Virus genome (UHGV): UHGV-2053560
Length of the DNA: 15,005 nucleotides
Origin: a virus
Direction: 5' to 3' (one strand)
Made by a program: the position numbers and the translations under genes. The notes under the pieces are model-generated. The model was given only the letters and a program-made list of their open reading frames with translations, did no database searches and had not been told where the DNA came from. Below are positions 1-13,117 of this stretch, piece by piece; within the stretch, counting starts at the first letter, position 1, and each line of letters opens with the position of its first letter.

Positions 1-1194
1 ATGATCACCGACACAAAGCTCAGGAAGGCGCTCGGCAAGAAAAGAGATGATATCGAGATTATTTCTGATTCGCACGGGCTCAACGCCAGAATCAGCCAGG
101 CCGGAAAAATATCATTTTTCTATCGGTATCGCTGGGCCGGTAAAGCGGTAAAACTCAATGTTGGTGATTATCCTGCAATGAGTATCACCCAGGCAAGAGA
201 GCGTCGCCAACAATTCAGAAACTGGTTAACTGAGGGACTGGATCCGCGAGAGCAGGTGAAGCTGGATAAGCAGACCCGACAGGAAGCGATGTCCGTTGCC
301 GAAGCGTTCAATTACTGGATTGAAAGGCACTGTATCGCTAACGGGCTAGTTAAAGTCGATTACTATCGCCAGGTGTTTGAGAAACATATCGCCGAACCGA
401 TGAAGAATGTCAAAGTCGATAACACAGCGAAAATGCACTGGATCAACGTCTTCGATTCTATAGAAAGCAGGGTGATGGCTCATTACATGCTTTCGCTGTG
501 CAAACGGGCGTTTAGGTTCTGCGTTAACAGAAGTGTGATCGCCTCAAACCCACTCGAGGGATTACTGCCATCTGATGTCGGGCAAAAGCCTAAAAAGAGA
601 ACTCGCAGGATGGACGATGACGATCTGCGCAAAATCTATCAGTGGTTGAAAAGCCATATGTCGATAGAGTCCGTTTTCCTGGTGAAATTTATTATGCTTA
701 CCGGATGCCGTACGGCTGAGATTCGACTTAGTGAGAGATCATGGTTTCGATTGGATGATAATGAGTGGGTCGTGCCTGCGGGCAGTTATAAAACTCGGGT
801 ACATATTAGAAGGGGACTCTCAGACGCCGCCGTTAACCTGGTCAGAAATCACCTCAAGAAAATAAACACCAATCACCTGGTGACTTCACAACGTAAAATT
901 GATGGCGGGATCAAAGATTCGCCCGTTCATTCACCTGTGGCATCCAATTACGCCCGTTCTATTTGGAATGGAACAGGTATGGCAGAGTGGTCGCTTCATG
1001 ATATGAGGCGGACGATAGCCACAAATCTCTCTGAGTTAGGTTGCCCGCCGCACGTAATTGAAAAGCTGCTCGGGCATCAGATGGTGGGGGTTATGGCGCA
1101 TTACAACCTTCATGACTATATCGATGATCAGAAACACTGGCTCCGCGTTTGGCAGAGCCATCTTGAAGAGATCATCGGAGAGCCCTTCAGTTAA
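1..1194 (+). CDS. int: Tyrosine-type site-specific integrase (phage integrase family, P4/CP4-57-like)
   Basis: 397-aa ORF starting at window base 1. N-terminal arm-type region ([10 protein letters not shown]...VGDYP), C-terminal catalytic-like motifs [17 protein letters not shown] and MAHY (candidate catalytic Tyr). Lies at the prophage edge, convergent with an excisionase-like gene. Confidence 0.85.
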
Positions 1195-2785: not shown

Positions 2786-2967
2786 TGCTTGCCTCCTTTG
2801 CGCAACATCGCATTCAGATATTTGTTGTCATTAACAGAACCGAAACTCTTTCTCTTAAGCAATTCCTCTCTCGATGGCATTGGCTTTACGCGTTGGCGAA
2901 TAATCATTTCTGCCGGAAGAATTCCTGGATTGTATGCAAGTCCTCTCATGGTAAATTCCTCAGTCAT
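2782..2967 (-). CDS. Hypothetical small protein (61 aa)
   Basis: In-frame ATG at 2967 lies inside AATGACTGA, overlapping the stop of the upstream 97-aa gene (translational coupling). The ORF-track N-terminal extension to 3099 would overlap that gene by 140 nt and is rejected. Confidence 0.4.
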
Positions 2968-3253
2968 TACTGATAGCGCCATAGCGTGAGCGGTAATTAC
3001 GCAGGCGCGGGTCAATTTCAGGGAAGTGGGTATATGTGGCTTTGCGGAATGGTCGGATTGATGTCTGGTAAATTCGCTCGCGTTCTTCTTTCTCTGCAAG
3101 CCATATACAATGGCGAAATTCCTTTTCCTCTTTCGTTTCCTGCGGTAGCGACATTATCAGGTCGTAGTTTTTTCTGAATTTATCCAGCACCTCCGATACG
3201 GAATTGCCGGAACAGCGGCGCGGGTCATCCGCACCATACAGAGGCGCTGGCAT
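2960..3253 (-). CDS. Hypothetical protein (97 aa)
   Basis: ATG at 3253 preceded by AGGAGA; charged, helical-looking protein; first gene after ssb in the leftward operon. Confidence 0.55.
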
Positions 3254-5007: not shown

Positions 5008-5070
5008 GGGTAACTCCTTATATTTGATTGCATAACGAAAACGCCTCGAGTGAAGCGTTATTGGTATGCA

Positions 5071-5097
5071 TATAAAAAGGCCCTCACACTGGAGGGC
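5071..5097 (-). terminator. Putative rho-independent terminator (tL-like) between the moron gene and the cIII-like gene
   Basis: Stem GCCCTC (5080-5085) / GAGGGC (5092-5097) with a 6-nt loop, followed on the minus strand by CTTTTTATAT. Confidence 0.4.
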
Positions 5098-5201
5098 AAA
5101 GAAGATTTCCAATAATCAGAACAAGTCGGCTCCTGTTTAGTTACGAGCGACATTGCTCCGTGTATTCACTCGTTGGAATGGATACACAGTGCTTATTCGT
5201 A

Positions 5202-5672
5202 CTAATAAAATACCCAATTTTCTGTTTCTTGGTTGTGTCCAAAGTTATATTCAATAACTGGTGTTGATGTATCAATATTTTTCATCCCATCAACAAGAGT
5301 TGATACAACAGCCAAATCTTGTTTTATTCTCATTAAATGGTATTTCTTCCGGCGCAATAAACTTTCAATAGCAAGTTTCTTCGTTGGGAATGCAAAAGAT
5401 CTTTCTGCATTTTTTGCTACTTTCTTAATTGCATATCTATTTCTCCTTTGTTTCCATTCCTGTAACCACTGATTTGGTGCTGGTTTAAAATTAACAACCC
5501 AATGCGCAGGAACCAACCATGCATAATGCTCTGTCTGATGAAAAGCTATATATTGAAGTGCGAATATTTTTATCCCATCTTCTTCAACTGTCGACTGGAA
5601 TCTCCAGAAAACAGGCATTCCATCATGTTCAGTTTCTGATTCAGGAAAAGGTACGCTCCATGATTTTGTCAT
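5202..5672 (-). CDS. Hypothetical protein (156 aa), AT-rich moron in the N-to-cIII interval
   Basis: ATG at 5672 preceded by GAGGTGAGAT; ends in TAG at 5202-5204. Visibly more AT-rich than the flanking genes. Non-repetitive soluble-looking protein; no family recognised. Confidence 0.6.
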   Translation of the reverse strand: MTKSWSVPFPESETEHDGMPVFWRFQSTVEEDGIKIFALQYIAFHQTEHYAWLVPAHWVVNFKPAPNQWLQEWKQRRNRYAIKKVAKNAERSFAFPTKKLAIESLLRRKKYHLMRIKQDLAVVSTLVDGMKNIDTSTPVIEYNFGHNQETENWVFY

Positions 5673-5726
5673 ATCTCACCTCAAATAAGTGGTTTGCTGC
5701 GAAAGTAAATCCGCTTAAGTTACCTG

Positions 5727-5864
5727 TTATTTATCCCACCAAGTTCCGTATCTATCTATCCAGTTACACCAATCATCGACACTCCATTTTGTTGTGTCGC
5801 ATTTTGGCAACTGGCATGAATATCTACCTTCTTTGTAAAGTCGGCGTTTGACTTTCTTGAGCAT
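5727..5864 (-). CDS. Small Cys/Trp-rich hypothetical protein (45 aa)
   Basis: ATG at 5864 preceded by GAGGTGAGCC, which overlaps the N stop codon. Product MLKKVKRRLYKEGRYSCQLPKCDTTKWSVDDWCNWIDRYGTWWDK (3 Cys, 5 Trp). Found by manual translation. Confidence 0.35.
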   Translation of the reverse strand: MLKKVKRRLYKEGRYSCQLPKCDTTKWSVDDWCNWIDRYGTWWDK

Positions 5865-5872
5865 GGCTCACC

Positions 5873-6205
5873 TCAATCGTAATAAGCTGGAATTGATTTT
5901 CCGCGTTGCTTCTGGCGGCCTGAGCATGTCACACCCATTTCACTGCGTGGCTTGCTGTACCATGTGCGCTGATTCTTGCGCTCAATACGTTGCAGGTTGC
6001 TTTCAATCTGTTCGTGGTATTCAGCCAGCACCGTAAGGTCTATCGGATTCAGTGCGCTTTCTACTCGTGATTTCGGTTTGCGATTCAGCGAGAGAATAGG
6101 GCGGTTAACTGGTTTTGCGCTTACCCCAACCAACAGGGGATTTGCTGCTTTCCATTGAGCCTGTTTCTCTGCGCGACGTTCGCGGCGGCGTGTTTGTGCA
6201 TCCAT
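5873..6205 (-). CDS. N: Antitermination protein N
   Basis: Product from ATG at 6205 begins MDAQTRRRERRAEKQAQWKAANPLLVGV, the arginine-rich motif of lambda N as I recall it. SD AGGAG upstream; nutL and pL lie immediately upstream on the same strand. Confidence 0.9.
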   Translation of the reverse strand: MDAQTRRRERRAEKQAQWKAANPLLVGVSAKPVNRPILSLNRKPKSRVESALNPIDLTVLAEYHEQIESNLQRIERKNQRTWYSKPRSEMGVTCSGRQKQRGKSIPAYYD

Positions 6206-6364
6206 CTGGATTCTCCTGTCAGTTAGCTTTGGTGGTGTGTGGCAGTTGTAGTCCTGAACGAAAACCCCCCGCGATTGGCACATTGGCAGCTAATCCGGAA
6301 TCGCACTTCCGGCCAATGCTTCGTTTCGTATCACACACCCCAAAGCCTTCTGCTTTGAATGCTG

Positions 6365-6395
6365 CCCTTCTTCAGGGCTTAATTTTTAAGAGCGT
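6365..6395 (-). promoter_or_regulatory. nutL (boxB hairpin and boxA)
   Basis: Minus-strand GCCCTGAAGAAGGGC (lambda nutL boxB) at 6365-6379 and CGCTCTTAA (boxA) at 6387-6395, between pL and N. Confidence 0.8.
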
Positions 6396-6434
6396 CACCT
6401 TCATGGTGGTCAGTGCGTCCTGCTGATGCGCTCA

Positions 6435-6497
6435 GTATCACCGCCAGTGGTATTTATGTCAACACCGCCAGAGATAATTTATCACCGCAGATGGTTA
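6435..6497 (-). promoter_or_regulatory. pL promoter with operators oL1, oL2, oL3
   Basis: TATCACCGCCAGTGGTA (6437-6453), CAACACCGCCAGAGATA (6461-6477) and TATCACCGCAGATGGTT (6481-6497) match lambda oL1-oL3 as recalled. Minus-strand TTGACA (-35) and GATACT (-10) overlap them. Confidence 0.85.
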
Positions 6498-6640
6498 TCT
6501 GTATGTTTTTTATATGAATTTATTTTTTGCAGGGGGGCATTGTTTGGTAGGTGAGAGATCTGAATTGCTATGTTTAGTGAGTTGTATCTATTTATTTTTC
6601 AATAAATACAATTGGTTATGTGTTTTGGGGGCGATCGTGA

Positions 6641-6669
6641 GGCAAAGAAAACCCGGCGCTGAGGCCGGG
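6641..6669 (-). terminator. Rho-independent terminator immediately after rexB (tIMM-like)
   Basis: Stem CCCGGC (6652-6657) / GCCGGG (6664-6669), loop GCTGAG, followed on the minus strand by TTTTCTTTG. Confidence 0.6.
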
Positions 6670-7104
6670 TTATTCTTGTTCTCTGGTCAAATTATATAGT
6701 TGGAAAACAAGGATGCATATATGAATGAACGATGCAGAGGCAATGCCGATGGCGATAGTGGGTATCATGTAGCCGCTTATGCTGGAAAGAAGCAATAACC
6801 CGCAGAAAAACAAAGCTCCAAGCTCAACAAAACTAAGGGCATAGACAATAACTACCGATGTCATATACCCATACTCTCTAATCTTGGCCAGTCGGCGCGT
6901 TCTGCTTCCGATTAGAAACGTCAAGGCAGCAATCAGGATTGCAATCATGGTTCCTGCATATGATGACAATGTCGCCCCAAGACCATCTCTATGAGCTGAA
7001 AAAGAAACACCAGGAATGTAGTGGCGGAAAAGGAGATAGCAAATGCTTACGATAACGTAAGGAATTATTACTATGTAAACACCAGGCATGATTCTGTTCC
7101 GCAT
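6670..7104 (-). CDS. rexB: RexB, membrane component of the Rex abortive-infection/exclusion system
   Basis: 144 aa, multiple hydrophobic helices, directly downstream of rexA in the cI transcript. Size, position and sequence agree with lambda RexB as I recall it. Confidence 0.9.
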   Translation of the reverse strand: MRNRIMPGVYIVIIPYVIVSICYLLFRHYIPGVSFSAHRDGLGATLSSYAGTMIAILIAALTFLIGSRTRRLAKIREYGYMTSVVIVYALSFVELGALFFCGLLLLSSISGYMIPTIAIGIASASFIHICILVFQLYNLTREQE

Positions 7105-7119
7105 AATTACTCCTGATAA

Positions 7120-7959
7120 TTAATCCTTAACTTTGCCCACCTGCCTTTTAAAACATTCCAGTATATCACTTTTCATTCTTGCGTAGCAATATGCCATCTC
7201 TTCAGCTATCTCAGCATTGGTGACCTTGTTCAGAGGCGCTGAGAGATGGCCTTTTTCTGATAGATAATGTTCTGTTAAAATATCTCCGGCCTCATCTTTT
7301 GCCCGCAGGCTAATGTCTGAAAATTGAGGTGACGGGTTAAAAATAATATCCTTGGCAACCTTTTTTATATCCCTTTTAAATTTTGGCTTAATGACTATAT
7401 CCAATGAGTCAAAAAGCTCCCCTTCAATATCTGTTGCCCCTAAGACCTTTAATATATCGCCAAATACAGGTAGCTTGGCTTCTACCTTCACCGTTGTTCG
7501 GCCGATGAAATGCATATGCATAACATCGTCTTTGGTGGTTCCCCTCATCAGTGGCTCTATCTGAACGCGCTCTCCACTGCTTAATGACATTCCTTTCCCG
7601 ATTAAAAAATCTGTCAGATCGGATGTGGTCGGCCCGAAAACAGTTCTGGCAAAACCAATGGTGTCGCCTTCAACAAACAAAAAAGATGGGAATCCCAATG
7701 ATTCGTCATCTGCGAGGCTGTTCTTAATATCTTCAACTGAAGCTTTAGAGCGATTTATCTTCTGAACCAGACTCTTGTCATTTGTTTTGGTAAAGAGAAA
7801 AGTTTTTCCATCGATTTTATGAATATACAAATAATTGGAGCCAACCTGCAGGTGATGATTATCAGCCAGCAGAGAATTAAGGAAAACAGACAGGTTTATT
7901 GAGCGCTTATCTTTCCCTTTATTTTTGCTGCGGTAAGTCGCATAAAAACCATTCTTCAT
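7120..7959 (-). CDS. rexA: RexA, sensor/activator component of the Rex exclusion system
   Basis: 279 aa, immediately downstream of cI on the same strand. Size, position and N-terminus (MKNGFYATYRSKNKGKDKRS) agree with lambda RexA as I recall it. Confidence 0.9.
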   Translation of the reverse strand: MKNGFYATYRSKNKGKDKRSINLSVFLNSLLADNHHLQVGSNYLYIHKIDGKTFLFTKTNDKSLVQKINRSKASVEDIKNSLADDESLGFPSFLFVEGDTIGFARTVFGPTTSDLTDFLIGKGMSLSSGERVQIEPLMRGTTKDDVMHMHFIGRTTVKVEAKLPVFGDILKVLGATDIEGELFDSLDIVIKPKFKRDIKKVAKDIIFNPSPQFSDISLRAKDEAGDILTEHYLSEKGHLSAPLNKVTNAEIAEEMAYCYARMKSDILECFKRQVGKVKD

Positions 7960-8071
7960 AATTCAATCCATTTACTATGTTATGTTCTGAGGGGAGTGAA
8001 AATTCCCCTAATTCGATGAAGATTCTTGCTCAATTGTTATCAGCTATGCGCCGACCAGAACACCTTGCCGA

Positions 8072-8788
<717 letters not shown>

Positions 8789-8796
8789 TTAAATCT

Positions 8797-8860
8797 ATCA
8801 CCGCAAGGGATAAATATCTAACACCGTGCGTGTTGACTATTTTACCTCTGGCGGTGATAA
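8797..8860. promoter_or_regulatory. oR3-oR2-oR1 operators with divergent pRM and pR
   Basis: TATCACCGCAAGGGATA (8797-8813), TAACACCGTGCGTGTTG (8819-8835) and TACCTCTGGCGGTGATA (8843-8859). pR -35 TTGACT (8832-8837) and -10 GATAAT (8855-8860); cro SD AAGGAGG at 8875-8881. Confidence 0.9.
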
Positions 8861-8876
8861 TGGTTGCATGTACTAA

Positions 8877-9086
<210 letters not shown>

Positions 9087-9093
9087 ATAACCC

Positions 9094-9125
9094 CGCTCTT
9101 ACACATCCCAGCCCTGAAAAAGGGC
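9094..9125 (+). promoter_or_regulatory. nutR (boxA and boxB)
   Basis: CGCTCTTA (9094-9101) and boxB hairpin GCCCTGAAAAAGGGC (9111-9125), directly after the cro stop. Confidence 0.8.
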
Positions 9126-9204
9126 ATCAAATTAAACCACACCTATGGTGTATGCATTTATTTGCATACATTCAATCAATTGTTATCTAAGGAAATACTT
9201 ACAT

Positions 9205-9483
9205 ATGCAACTTACAAGTACTCGCAAGAAAGCGAATGCAATTACAAGCAACATCCTGAATCGAATTGCTGTACGTGGTCAGCGAAAGGTTGCTGATGCA
9301 TTAGGGATTAATGAATCGCAAATTTCGCGATGGAAAGACAGCTTTATCCCAAAGATGGCCATGCTTCTGGCTGTGCTGGAGTGGGGTGTTGAAGACGAGG
9401 AATTAGCAGAGCTGGCAAAGAAAGTAGCCATGGTGCTGACAAAAGAAAAGCCTCAAGACTGCTGCAACAGTTTTGAGGCCTGA
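9205..9483 (+). CDS. cII: CII-like transcriptional activator (non-lambda allele)
   Basis: ATG at 9205 preceded by TAAGGAAATACTTACAT, as at lambda cII. Product carries the conserved core ESQISRWK...IPK..MLLAVLEWGV, but the N- and C-termini differ from lambda CII. The ORF-track extension to 9145 is rejected. Confidence 0.75.
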   Translation: MQLTSTRKKANAITSNILNRIAVRGQRKVADALGINESQISRWKDSFIPKMAMLLAVLEWGVEDEELAELAKKVAMVLTKEKPQDCCNSFEA

Positions 9484-9517
9484 TGTAGAAAGACTGGATC
9501 AATCCACAGGAGTAATT

Positions 9518-9679
9518 ATGACAAAACGTCGTAAGAAATACCAGGAAAAAGAAGAGATTCGACACCCTGATTCACATGAGGGATTAGTGGTAGCCGCAGC
9601 AAATAACAGGGCGTTCGCAGAGCGCCTTGTTGGTGTTTACAGACTAGCCAAAGCAGGAGTGAAACATGGGCGTCGTTAA
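9518..9679 (+). CDS. Small basic hypothetical protein (53 aa) between cII and the O-like gene
   Basis: ATG at 9518 preceded by CAGGAGTAATT; product [53 protein letters not shown]; overlaps the O-like start by 14 nt. Confidence 0.4.
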   Translation: MTKRRKKYQEKEEIRHPDSHEGLVVAAANNRAFAERLVGVYRLAKAGVKHGRR

Positions 9680-10487
9680 GTTAGCTGATTACAGGCCTCA
9701 ACTGGAGGTCGTGGAGCATCGCGTGGCAGACACCGAAGATGGTTTCATGCGCGTTGCTAACGAGATTACCGACAGTCTGCTGATGGCTGATTTAACCGTC
9801 CGGCAGTTGAAGGTGATGCTCGCTATCATGCGCAAGACATACGGATTCAATAAGCCGATGGATCGACTCACAAACACGCAGATAGCAGCCATGACAGGTA
9901 TTCATCACACTCATGTTTGCGCTGCCAAGCGCCAGCTTATTGAGCGTAAATTCCTCATTGCTGATGGCGTGAAAATCGGAGTGAACAAGGTGGTTTCGCA
10001 GTGGATTAGCCAGGACAGCTTAACATTAGCCAAAACAGCTAATAAAACATTAGCCAAGTCGGCTAATGGGTATAAGCCAAGTCAGCTAAACACAAAAGAC
10101 AATATACAAAAGACAATAAATACAAATACCCCCTTACCCCCTAACGGGGGCGGCGATGGGCAGGTTAAACCTGAACGTCGCAAGGCAGAACGAATCGACT
10201 ACGAATCCTTCCTGAACGCCTACAACACCGAAGTCGGTGACAGACTTCCACACGCTGTTGCGGTCAACGAGAAACGCAAACGCCGCCTGAAGAAAATCAT
10301 CCCGCAACTGAAAACGCCAAACGTGGACGGTTTCAGGGCGTATGTCAGGGCGTTTGTGCATCAGGCCAAGCCGTTTTACTTCGGAGACAACGACACGGGC
10401 TGGACGGCCGATTTTGATTACCTGCTGAGAGAAGATTCGTTAACGGGAGTTCGTGAAGGGAAGTTTGCAGACAGGGGGATTGCATGA
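9666..10487 (+). CDS. Replication initiator, lambda O-like N-terminal domain (P22 gene 18-like)
   Basis: 273 aa. [36 protein letters not shown] parallels lambda O (LTKRQFKVLLAILRKTYGWNKPMDRITDSQL). Iteron array and AT-rich tract lie inside the gene; SD AGGAGTGA before the ATG. Confidence 0.8.
10004..10150 (+). repeat. Replication-origin-like iteron array, AT-rich tract and GC palindrome inside the O-like gene
   Basis: Four ~20-bp imperfect repeats with internal dyad symmetry (GATTAGCCAGGACAGCTTAA, CATTAGCCAAAACAGCTAAT, CATTAGCCAAGTCGGCTAAT, ATAAGCCAAGTCAGCTAAAC), then an AT-rich stretch (10091-10128) and CCCCCTAACGGGGG. Confidence 0.6.
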
Positions 10488-11860
10488 GACAGGATATCGA
10501 AGCGAGCGTTATCGGCGGTCTGCTGATTGGTGGATTAACGCCAACCGCCAGCGACGTTCTGGCAACGCTTGAGCCGGAAGCGTTTTCAATTCCGCTCTAC
10601 CGGAAAGCCTTCGAGGTTATCCGCAAGCAGGCGAGAAACAGAAACCTAATCGACGCGCTGATGGTTGCCGAGGCGTGCGGAGAGGAGCATTTCACGTCAA
10701 TCCTGATGACCAGCAAAAACTGCCCGAGTGCCGCAAACCTGAAGGGATATGCCGGAATGGTCGCGGATAACTATCACCGCCGTCTGGTGCTGGAAATCAT
10801 GGATGAAATGCGTGAACCAATTCAGAGCGGAACCATCGACGCATCGAGTCAGGCGATGGATGAACTTGTAAAGCGTCTTTCAGCCATCAGAAAGCCCCGT
10901 GACGAGGTAAAACCTGTACGGTTAGGGGAAATCATTACTGACTACACTGACACGCTTGACAGGCGTCTGAGGAACGGAGAAGAGTCCGATACCCTGAAGA
11001 CCGGAATCGAAGAACTTGATGCCATCACCGGAGGGATGAACGCGGAAGACCTGGTGATAATCGCTGCTCGTCCTGGTATGGGGAAAACCGAACTGGCGCT
11101 GAAGATTGCCGAAGGCGTTGCAAGCCGCGTTATTCCTGGTTCTGACGTCCGGCGCGGAGTATTGATTTTCTCAATGGAAATGAGCGCATTGCAGATTGCA
11201 GAGCGAAGTATTGCCAACGCCGGGAGGATGTCGGTTAGCGTGCTGCGAAATCCTGCATCGATGGATGACGAGGGCTGGGCACGTGTTGCTAACGGCATGA
11301 GTCAGCTTGCAGATTTGGATGTATGGGTAGTCGATGCCTCGCGGTTATCGGTCGAAGAAATACGCTCAATCGCAGAACGGCACAAACAGGAAAATCCAAA
11401 CCTGTCACTCATCATGGCGGATTATCTTGGCCTGATTGAGAAGCCGAAAGCAGACCGCAACGACCTTGCAATTGCTCACATCTCCGGAAGCCTGAAGGCG
11501 ATGGCGAAAGACCTAAAAACGCCTGTTATCTCCCTGAGTCAGCTTTCGCGCGATGTTGAGAAGCGACCAAACAAACGCCCGACAAACGCAGATTTGCGTG
11601 ATTCAGGAAGCATTGAACAGGACGCAGACTCAATCATCATGCTCTATCGGGAAGCGGTATATGACGAGAACAGTAGCGCCGCGCCATTTGCTGAAATCAT
11701 CGTGACGAAAAACCGTTTTGGCTCGCTTGGTACGGTTTACCAGCGATTCTGTAACGGACACTTTGTTGCATGTGACCAGGATGAAGCCAGACAGATTTGC
11801 ACAGCATCAAATGCGCCTGCTGCGCGTGGCAGACGATATGCACAAGGGGCGGACGTATGA
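10484..11860 (+). CDS. DnaB-family replicative DNA helicase (P22 gene 12-like)
   Basis: 458 aa. Walker [14 protein letters not shown], DnaB-like motifs ([44 protein letters not shown]). ATG overlaps the O-like stop (ATGA). Confidence 0.9.
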
Positions 11861-11940
11861 CCATCTACATCACTGAGCTTGTAACAGGCCTGCTGGTAAT
11901 CGCAGGCCTTTTTATTTGGGGGAGAGTAAATCGTGGTTGA
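11857..11940 (+). CDS. Possible 27-aa hydrophobic peptide
   Basis: ATG overlaps the helicase stop (ATGA); product [27 protein letters not shown] is one predicted transmembrane helix. Very short, so speculative. Confidence 0.25.
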
Positions 11941-12146: not shown

Positions 12147-12593
12147 ATGAAGCAAATATACATGCTTCGCAACGAAGCAATCAGAAACAACGCCATAGAC
12201 GCAATACTCTCACTTCCGATCGACGACAAGTCACCTCACGAAGTCCACATTAAAGAACCAAAGCGGAGCAATCCTCAAAACCGCCTTATGTGGGCGTTAT
12301 TGCAGGACGTATCGCGTCAGGTGCTTTGGCATGGAGAGAGACTTGCGCCGGAGGACTGGAAAGATCTGTTCACTGCCCTGTGGCTTAAGACCAAAAAAAT
12401 GGAGCAAAGAAGTGCGCCTGGTATCGACGGTGGCGTTGTCATGCTTGGCGTGCGTACCAGCAAAATGCGAAAGGCCAACATGACTGAGCTTATCGAAATC
12501 ATGTTCTGGTTCGGCTCAGAGCGCAACGTGCGATGGAGTGATGACTCCCGGAGAGAGTATGAATGGTCACAACGAAAAGGGAAGGCTGCATGA
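12147..12593 (+). CDS. ninB: NinB (Orf-family recombination mediator)
   Basis: Product from ATG 12147 aligns by eye to lambda NinB (NPQNRLMWALLQDVSRQVLWHGERL vs DQNRKLWACLGDVSRQVEWHGRWL; C-terminal RWSD...EW). Confidence 0.85.
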   Translation: MKQIYMLRNEAIRNNAIDAILSLPIDDKSPHEVHIKEPKRSNPQNRLMWALLQDVSRQVLWHGERLAPEDWKDLFTALWLKTKKMEQRSAPGIDGGVVMLGVRTSKMRKANMTELIEIMFWFGSERNVRWSDDSRREYEWSQRKGKAA

Positions 12594-13117
12594 CTATCAA
12601 ATCAAATACGCCAGCACACGACAAGGACTGCTGGCAAACGCCGCTTTGGCTTTTTGATGCACTGGATATTGAGTTTGGATTCTGGCTGGATTCGGCAGCG
12701 AGCGACAAAAACGCTCTGTGCGCTCACTGGCTAACTGAGGCCGACGACGCACTCAATTCTGAGTGGATAAGCCACGGTGCAATCTGGAATAACCCACCGT
12801 ACAGCAATATCAGGCCGTGGGTGGAAAAAGCCGCTGAGCAGTGCATACAACAGCGACAGACGGTAGTGATGCTTGTGCCAGAGGATATGTCTGTCGGATG
12901 GTTCAGCAAGGCTCTGGAGAGTGTTGACGAAGTTCGTATTATCACTGATGGACGGATTAATTTTATCGAACCATCGACAGGGCTGGAGAAGAAGGGAAAC
13001 AGCAAAGGTTCCATGCTGCTGATTTGGCGACCGTTCATCAGTCCTCGACGGATGTTTACTACCGTATCCAAAGCGGCATTGATGGCGATCGGGCAGGGCG
13101 TCAGGAGGGCAGCATGA
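12590..13117 (+). CDS. Phage-type DNA N6-adenine methyltransferase (Dam-like, orphan)
   Basis: ATG at 12590 overlaps the ninB stop (ATGA). Catalytic NPPY motif in IWNNPPYSN. Sits where lambda has ninC/ninD. Confidence 0.75.

Follow-up and report, generated by a model that had tools for sequence, protein, structure and literature searches.

Exclusion by the rex genes of phage lambda has been described since Benzer's rII work. Lambda lysogens express cI, rexA, and rexB from the promoter P_RM, and rexB is also expressed from P_LIT (10.1101/2021.04.19.439022; PMC11077077). RexA, a dimeric protein with an RdgC-like fold, shows non-specific DNA binding and is an interaction partner of RexB, and the two proteins together exclude T4 rII mutants (PMC11077077; 10.1101/2021.04.19.439022). 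In the classical model, as it is summarized in later papers, RexA senses a product of the infection and opens the RexB ion channel, leading to depolarization, loss of ATP, and abortion of the infection (Parma et al. 1992, Genes Dev 6:497, in PMC12894663 and PMC11077077).

Other activities have been assigned to both proteins. RexA binds CI, stabilizes the non-immune, lytic state, and raises induction at low UV, independently of RexB (10.1101/2021.04.19.439022). RexB inhibits the ClpXP or ClpAP degradation of lambda O, Phd, and MazE, according to the lambda Rex papers cited here. Thomason et al. reported that Rex proteins contact lambda O and Ren (10.1101/2021.04.19.439022). The authors of these studies considered that T4 rII exclusion is possibly a by-product of Rex expression (PMC11077077; 10.1101/2021.04.19.439022).

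Here we analyzed a rexA-rexB pair in a 15,005-nucleotide stretch of the virus genome UHGV-2053560, referred to as the window in subsequent discussion. A preliminary description had proposed that the two genes beside cI match lambda rexA and rexB and are co-transcribed with cI. Our analysis indicates that they are very probably the authentic lambda RexA/RexB exclusion module, situated within an intact imm-lambda cassette that recombined into a different, E. coli-type lambdoid backbone.

Identity of the rexA and rexB genes

The rexA gene (7120..7959, minus strand; lambda rexA 36275-37114) encodes a predicted soluble protein of 279 amino acids and 31.3 kDa. The rexB gene (6670..7104, minus strand; lambda rexB 35825-36259) encodes a predicted inner-membrane protein of 144 amino acids and 16.0 kDa. 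Both calculated masses agree with the published values (PMC11077077). In the six-frame list of open reading frames, rexA lies 15 bp upstream of rexB in the direction of transcription, and both genes are directly downstream of cI (8072..8785, minus strand), which encodes the 237-amino-acid repressor and is the first gene of the P_RM operon cI-rexA-rexB. This is the lambda order (lambda annotation, NC_001416). The divergent cro gene (8886..9086, plus strand, 66 amino acids) belongs to the right part of the imm-lambda cassette.

Direct comparison with lambda NC_001416 gave 100% identity at both the DNA and the protein level for rexB, rexA, cI, and cro. The sizes, order, and coordinates of the two rex genes in the preliminary description were thus exact, and the alignment to lambda that it had proposed as a check on the match returned full rather than low identity. 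When positions 6600-8900 were compared with phage records by megablast, lambda J02459/NC_001416 (35755-38055) matched with 100% identity over 100% of the query, as did phages SfI and ev243. An exact match of 2.7 kb leaves no room for chance, and no feature of the sequence contradicts the identity.

Profile searches placed both proteins in the families that had been claimed for them. RexA matched Pfam RexA PF15969 with 326.8 bits against a cut-off of 25 (E = 1e-97), and RexB matched Pfam RexB PF15968 with 305.4 bits against a cut-off of 27 (E = 8.5e-92). PADLOC recognized RexA (E = 9e-110) and RexB (E = 8.6e-61), and in PHROGs the two proteins fall in phrog_12654 ('RexA-like exclusion protein') and phrog_14878 ('RexB-like exclusion protein'). 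The cI protein has the Pfam domains HTH_3 and Peptidase_S24.

The match between RexA and crystallized lambda RexA (PDB 8twq) spans residues 1-279 (E = 1.5e-184). The residues that were targeted in published mutagenesis of RexA (G140-K143, D215, R219, K221, and 239-244) are all present, which follows trivially from the identity of the protein with lambda RexA. RexB gave only chance-level matches among PDB sequences (E = 0.86), with no relative among solved structures, and therefore no structural inference is possible for RexB; we know of no structure for this protein. Hydropathy analysis (Kyte-Doolittle, 19-residue window, threshold of at least 1.6) identified four hydrophobic regions in RexB, centered near residues 16, 56, 95-107, and 125. 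These segments are consistent with the published four-helix topology and with the prediction of an inner-membrane protein.

The rexA-rexB block had been called AT-rich relative to cI. This is true, but the difference is modest: the GC content is 40.9% for rexAB and 45.2% for cI, compared with 47.2% for the window.

Control signals and edges of the immunity cassette

A base-by-base comparison delimited an imm-lambda cassette at 6430..9106 that has zero differences from lambda 35585-38261 over 2,677 bp. It extends from OL through rexB, rexA, cI, OR/PRM/PR, and cro to nutR, and lambda coordinates convert to window coordinates with a constant offset of 29155. OL1-OL3 and P_L (6434..6496, minus strand) form the left boundary; OL is at 6436-6496, as converted from lambda 35591-35651, and a consensus scan found P_L (TTGACA-17-GATACT) at 6462-6434 on the minus strand. 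OR3-OR2-OR1, with the divergent promoters P_RM and P_R, occupies 8796..8861, with OR at 8796-8859 as converted from lambda 37951-38014. The OR3 sequence, TATCACCGCAAGGGATA, was read directly at 8796-8812, and the scan placed the rightward promoter P_R (TTGACT-17-GATAAT) at 8833-8861 on the plus strand. P_RM, which is directed leftward, drives cI-rexA-rexB, and the OR/P_RM region is identical to that of lambda.

No convincing terminator was found between cI and the end of rexB. Directly after rexB, and overlapping its stop codon, the scan identified the intrinsic terminator T_IMM (6650..6671, minus strand), which consists of an 8-bp GC-rich stem and a T-run. The hairpin RNA has a folding energy of -21.2 kcal/mol (z = -4.68), and its position directly downstream of rexB is the position in the published description (10.1101/2021.04.19.439022). 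The lack of a convincing internal terminator and the strong hairpin after the rexB stop codon fit the proposal that rexA and rexB are co-transcribed with cI. The Shine-Dalgarno sequence of rexB, AGGAG, is located 6 nt 5' of the ATG. A short inverted repeat, GGGGA-N8-TCCCC, is present at 7990-8007 (minus strand), within the 112 bp that separate cI from rexA, and is identical in lambda.

A candidate for P_LIT (7160..7189, minus strand) was found within the 3' end of rexA. It comprises the hexamers TTGCTA and TATACT, separated by 18 bp, with an upstream TG (extended -10), and is identical to lambda 36315-36344. The consensus scan returned four promoter-like sites, fewer than the mean of 6.4 for shuffled sequences. 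The assignment was therefore made on the basis of the identity to lambda and the published location of P_LIT at the distal end of rexA (10.1101/2021.04.19.439022), rather than on the scan. From these two points we infer that the hexamer pair is P_LIT, which would transcribe rexB alone and increase the amount of RexB over that of RexA.

The difference-free core (6430-9106) is contained in a longer lambda-like stretch (5889-9207) that is 99.1% identical to lambda. The differences from lambda are clustered at 5894-5948, in the C-terminal part of N, and are otherwise isolated, at 6013, 6032, 6050, 6309, 6429, and 9107. The two single-base differences that bound the perfect block are 2-3 nt upstream of the P_L transcription start (6429) and in the nutR spacer between boxA and boxB (9107). 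The mosaic junctions of the lambda-like segment are within the C-terminal part of N (5894-5948) on the left and at the cII start codon (9205-9207) on the right. As a consequence of the right junction, the lambda P_RE -10 region is kept and the CII-binding -35 region is in non-lambda sequence. The lambda-equivalent CII site (9214-9227, minus strand) reads TTGC-N6-TTGT instead of TTGC-N6-TTGC.

The backbone around the cassette and its authenticity

Outside the cassette, the window consists of another lambdoid mosaic, of the E. coli type, and all of its parts match lambdoid phages of E. coli or Shigella with 94-100% identity. The phage records closest to the window are HK544, HK97, HK446, and mEp213, with 36-50% coverage; when the whole window was compared, none of the phage records exceeded 50% coverage and none of the complete E. 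coli genomes exceeded 74%. The left arm begins with a tyrosine integrase gene (1-1194, plus strand; Arm-DNA-bind_3 domain) whose first base is position 1 and which is oriented rightward, against the leftward direction of the early operon. Further left-arm genes encode DUF4060, Ead/Ea22, DUF7739, and DUF2737 proteins, Abc2, SSB, a Rad52/Erf-type annealing protein, and cIII. Positions 1-1743, which contain the integrase and DUF4060 genes, are 99.8% identical to another group of E. coli prophages. Those prophages bear RecT in place of the Rad52/Erf-type recombinase, which places a further mosaic junction near 1743. No GTDB species-representative genome contained an exact copy of a 60-base sequence spanning this junction.

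To the right of the cassette is a replication module (9205-11860, plus strand) with a non-lambda cII, an O-like initiator gene, and a DnaB-type helicase gene replacing P. The CII-family protein is only 55% identical to lambda CII, and the O-like initiator is 42% identical to lambda O, in the N-terminal domain only. Beyond the helicase the right arm encodes NinB, Dam, NinF, NinG, and NinH. Neither lambda ren nor lambda P was found in the window by tblastn (best E = 0.92 for ren and 0.44 for P), and comparison with the lambda genes indicated that sieB and ral are also absent from it.

RexAB had been described as the one clear defense system in the window, and searches of the remaining genes agreed with this. 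PADLOC returned no system-level match for the 20 other open reading frames; its weak or generic matches were to an orphan Dam methyltransferase and, marginally, to NinG, NinH, Ead/Ea22, and the DnaB helicase (including PtuB/mad on NinG and the helicase). Two genes are of a counter-defense type: abc2, for a P22-type anti-RecBCD protein (2960-3253, minus strand; Pfam E = 6.2e-65), and dam, for an orphan N6-adenine methyltransferase (12563-13117, plus strand; Pfam E = 9.9e-65; PADLOC orphan MTase E = 2.9e-19).

Between cIII and N, an AT-rich stretch (34-38% GC) contains an open reading frame for 156 amino acids (5202-5672, minus strand). In lambda, this interval contains ea10, ral, and sieB. The 156-amino-acid product belongs to phrog_1636, of unknown function, and had no match in Pfam or PADLOC. 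In position and composition the gene resembles an accessory (moron) gene, and in E. coli CUVET20-1667 it is conserved alongside the Rex cassette.

Among 5,426 complete E. coli genomes, 99 contained rexAB, always with at least 99% identity. Lambda-identical rexA was also detected in GTDB species-representative assemblies of unrelated bacteria, among them Shewanella, Kitasatospora, Capnocytophaga, Bradyrhizobium, Neobacillus, and Helicobacter. Many of these matches were on low-coverage contigs of ~48.4 kb or on tiny contigs and represent lambda DNA contaminants in public assemblies. One match, in Siccibacter colletis (99%, within a 236-kb contig), looks genuine. RexA matches in species-representative genomes were rejected as a measure of taxonomic spread because they mainly reflect lambda contamination of unrelated assemblies.

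If lambda DNA from a laboratory reagent or sequencing control had been mis-assembled into a resident lambdoid prophage via homology, the lambda-identical block in the window would be an artefact. Lambda contamination is common enough to make this explanation worth considering, given the 100% lambda rexA sequences in unrelated bacterial assemblies, several on low-coverage contigs of ~48.4 kb. However, it is extremely improbable, because the same junctions and arrangement are present in closed E. coli chromosomes. Over 6.86 kb (5070-11926), the window matches a prophage of E. coli CUVET20-1667, whose chromosome is closed, with 99.4% identity; this segment contains the 156-amino-acid open reading frame, N, rexB, rexA, cI, and cro, together with the non-lambda cII, the O-like gene, and the helicase gene. 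A synthetic query that joined rexA to the non-lambda cII/O segment was at least 80% covered in nine complete genomes, in six of them with 100% identity. In addition, the left junction within N, with lambda-like sequence at 99% from position 5889, follows the usual lambdoid mosaic pattern. Contamination or chimeric assembly of the window was therefore rejected. The arrangement shared with closed chromosomes, together with the match of positions 1-1743 to E. coli prophages, indicates that the window is a genuine natural mosaic. The window also demonstrates that immunity and Rex genes move together, as one cassette, between lambdoid backbones.

It is also conceivable that rexA and rexB are intact but silent remnants of a defective prophage and confer no phenotype. 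The visible part of the prophage is limited to 15 kb, and neither the complete E. coli genomes (best coverage, 74%) nor the GTDB representative genomes contained this exact 15-kb combination. Nevertheless, we regard silent genes as very unlikely. The open reading frames, the operators, P_L, P_R, the terminator, and cI do not differ from those of functional lambda, and full-length integrase, recombination, replication, and nin genes are present in the window. Furthermore, P_RM needs just CI and host RNA polymerase, and thus Rex would still be made by a prophage that is defective but has kept its immunity region intact.

Expected function and comparison with known Rex systems

The functional interpretation of this locus is transferred from lambda in its entirety, with sequence identity, operon structure and gene order, control signals, and RexB topology as the features established in the window itself. 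The locus would be expected to act as lambda Rex does, with RexA as the sensor and RexB as the membrane effector of abortive-infection exclusion, plus a role in the CI/Cro switch. Because the proteins and the control region are identical to those of lambda, a lysogen would be expected to exclude T4 rII mutants but not wild-type T4, with both genes required.

In such a lysogen, CI would activate P_RM to give a cI-rexA-rexB transcript extending up to T_IMM, and rexB would be transcribed additionally from P_LIT within rexA. RexA is expected to be a soluble, RdgC-like dimer that is non-specific on DNA and a partner of RexB. Upon superinfection by a sensitive phage, such as T4 rII mutants or some lambdoid phages, RexA would activate RexB, the predicted four-helix inner-membrane protein. 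Membrane potential and ATP would then drop and the infection would abort, with the cell dying or turning stationary-like. Separately, RexA may bind CI and help to hold the switch in the lytic state once induction has occurred, an effect that RexB may moderate. The label of defense system in the preliminary description is therefore the textbook reading, and it stands as such, but it is incomplete, because recent studies of lambda argue for an additional role of RexA in tuning the CI/Cro switch and for T4 rII exclusion as a possible by-product (PMC11077077; 10.1101/2021.04.19.439022).

One possibility is that the selected role of RexAB is to control the lysogeny-to-lysis transition of its own phage, possibly with tethering of the replication complex, and that T4 rII exclusion is a side effect on host energetics. 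This possibility, which is compatible with an authentic lambda exclusion module, is somewhat unlikely. The binding of CI by RexA, the stabilization of the non-immune state, and the increased induction at low UV, all independent of RexB (10.1101/2021.04.19.439022), are in line with it, as is the fact that rexAB always travels with the cI/cro switch, both in the identical 2,677-bp cassette and in the 99 E. coli carriers, all with at least 99% identity. However, Rex-like pairs of actinobacteriophages and of Pseudomonas putida protect against other phages (PMC11077077; PMC12894663). Moreover, this phage either lacks the partners that have been reported, lambda O and Ren, or has only distant relatives of them, and thus a role linked to replication would need to work without them.

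Under the preferred reading, an authentic lambda exclusion module in a foreign backbone, the lack of lambda O, P, and Ren, which have been reported as partners or antagonists of Rex, makes this phage a natural test of the dependence of Rex on its partners. We consider it doubtful that the lambda cassette, including rexAB, is a self-contained unit that works in a phage without lambda O, P, and Ren. The ren gene is said to shield lambda from Rex, a result attributed to Toothman and Herskowitz in 1980. If that is correct and the cassette is indeed self-contained, then the hybrid, with its DnaB-type replication module and no ren, would have to possess an unrecognized substitute for Ren or be inherently insensitive to the Rex that it encodes. 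Either outcome would help to define what RexA senses.

As had been anticipated, the genes are not novel; they are already known and, at 100% identity to lambda, are the type example. Exact lambda genes matter little alone. Their value is as context: they show that the window is an imm-lambda lambdoid prophage and define the operon structure around cI.

The closest known system is lambda rexA/rexB itself (NC_001416/J02459, 35825-37114; RexA, PDB 8TWQ), with which the locus shares gene order, spacing, operators, P_L, P_R, the P_LIT region, and T_IMM. The differences are confined to the genomic background. The C terminus of N diverges at 5894-5948; cII (55%) and the N-terminal domain of the O-like protein (42%) are distant from their lambda counterparts; a DnaB-type helicase stands in for P; ren, sieB, and ral are lacking; and a Rad52/Erf-type recombinase and Abc2 are present in place of the lambda recombination genes.

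The rexB-rexA-cI-cro block is also ~100% identical in Shigella phage SfI, Escherichia phage ev243, and the E. coli prophages of CUVET20-1667, 1223, ETEC4089, and DETEC-P80. These E. coli prophages further share N, the 156-amino-acid open reading frame, the non-lambda cII, the O-like gene, and the DnaB helicase gene with the window at 99.4%. However, the left arm of the imm-lambda E. coli prophages is unlike that of the window, and no complete genome covers more than 74% of it. Immunity regions of the HK97/HK544 type present the converse case. Their cI and cro are lambda-like (97-99%) and their backbone resembles that of the window, but two unrelated small genes occupy the place of rexA and rexB, and only 39-41% of the 6600-8900 query is covered.

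More distant counterparts are the Rex-like pairs of the actinobacteriophages Sbash (gp30/31), CarolAnn, and Toast and the RexAB of Pseudomonas putida prophage P1 (PMC11077077; PMC12894663). The P. putida RexAB causes membrane damage without measurable depolarization (PMC12894663). These pairs are distant in sequence from lambda RexAB and have been likened to it in published descriptions on the basis of the same two-gene logic, in which a soluble, RexA-like, DNA-binding dimer and a membrane-located, RexB-like effector are encoded beside the repressor (PMC11077077; PMC12894663).
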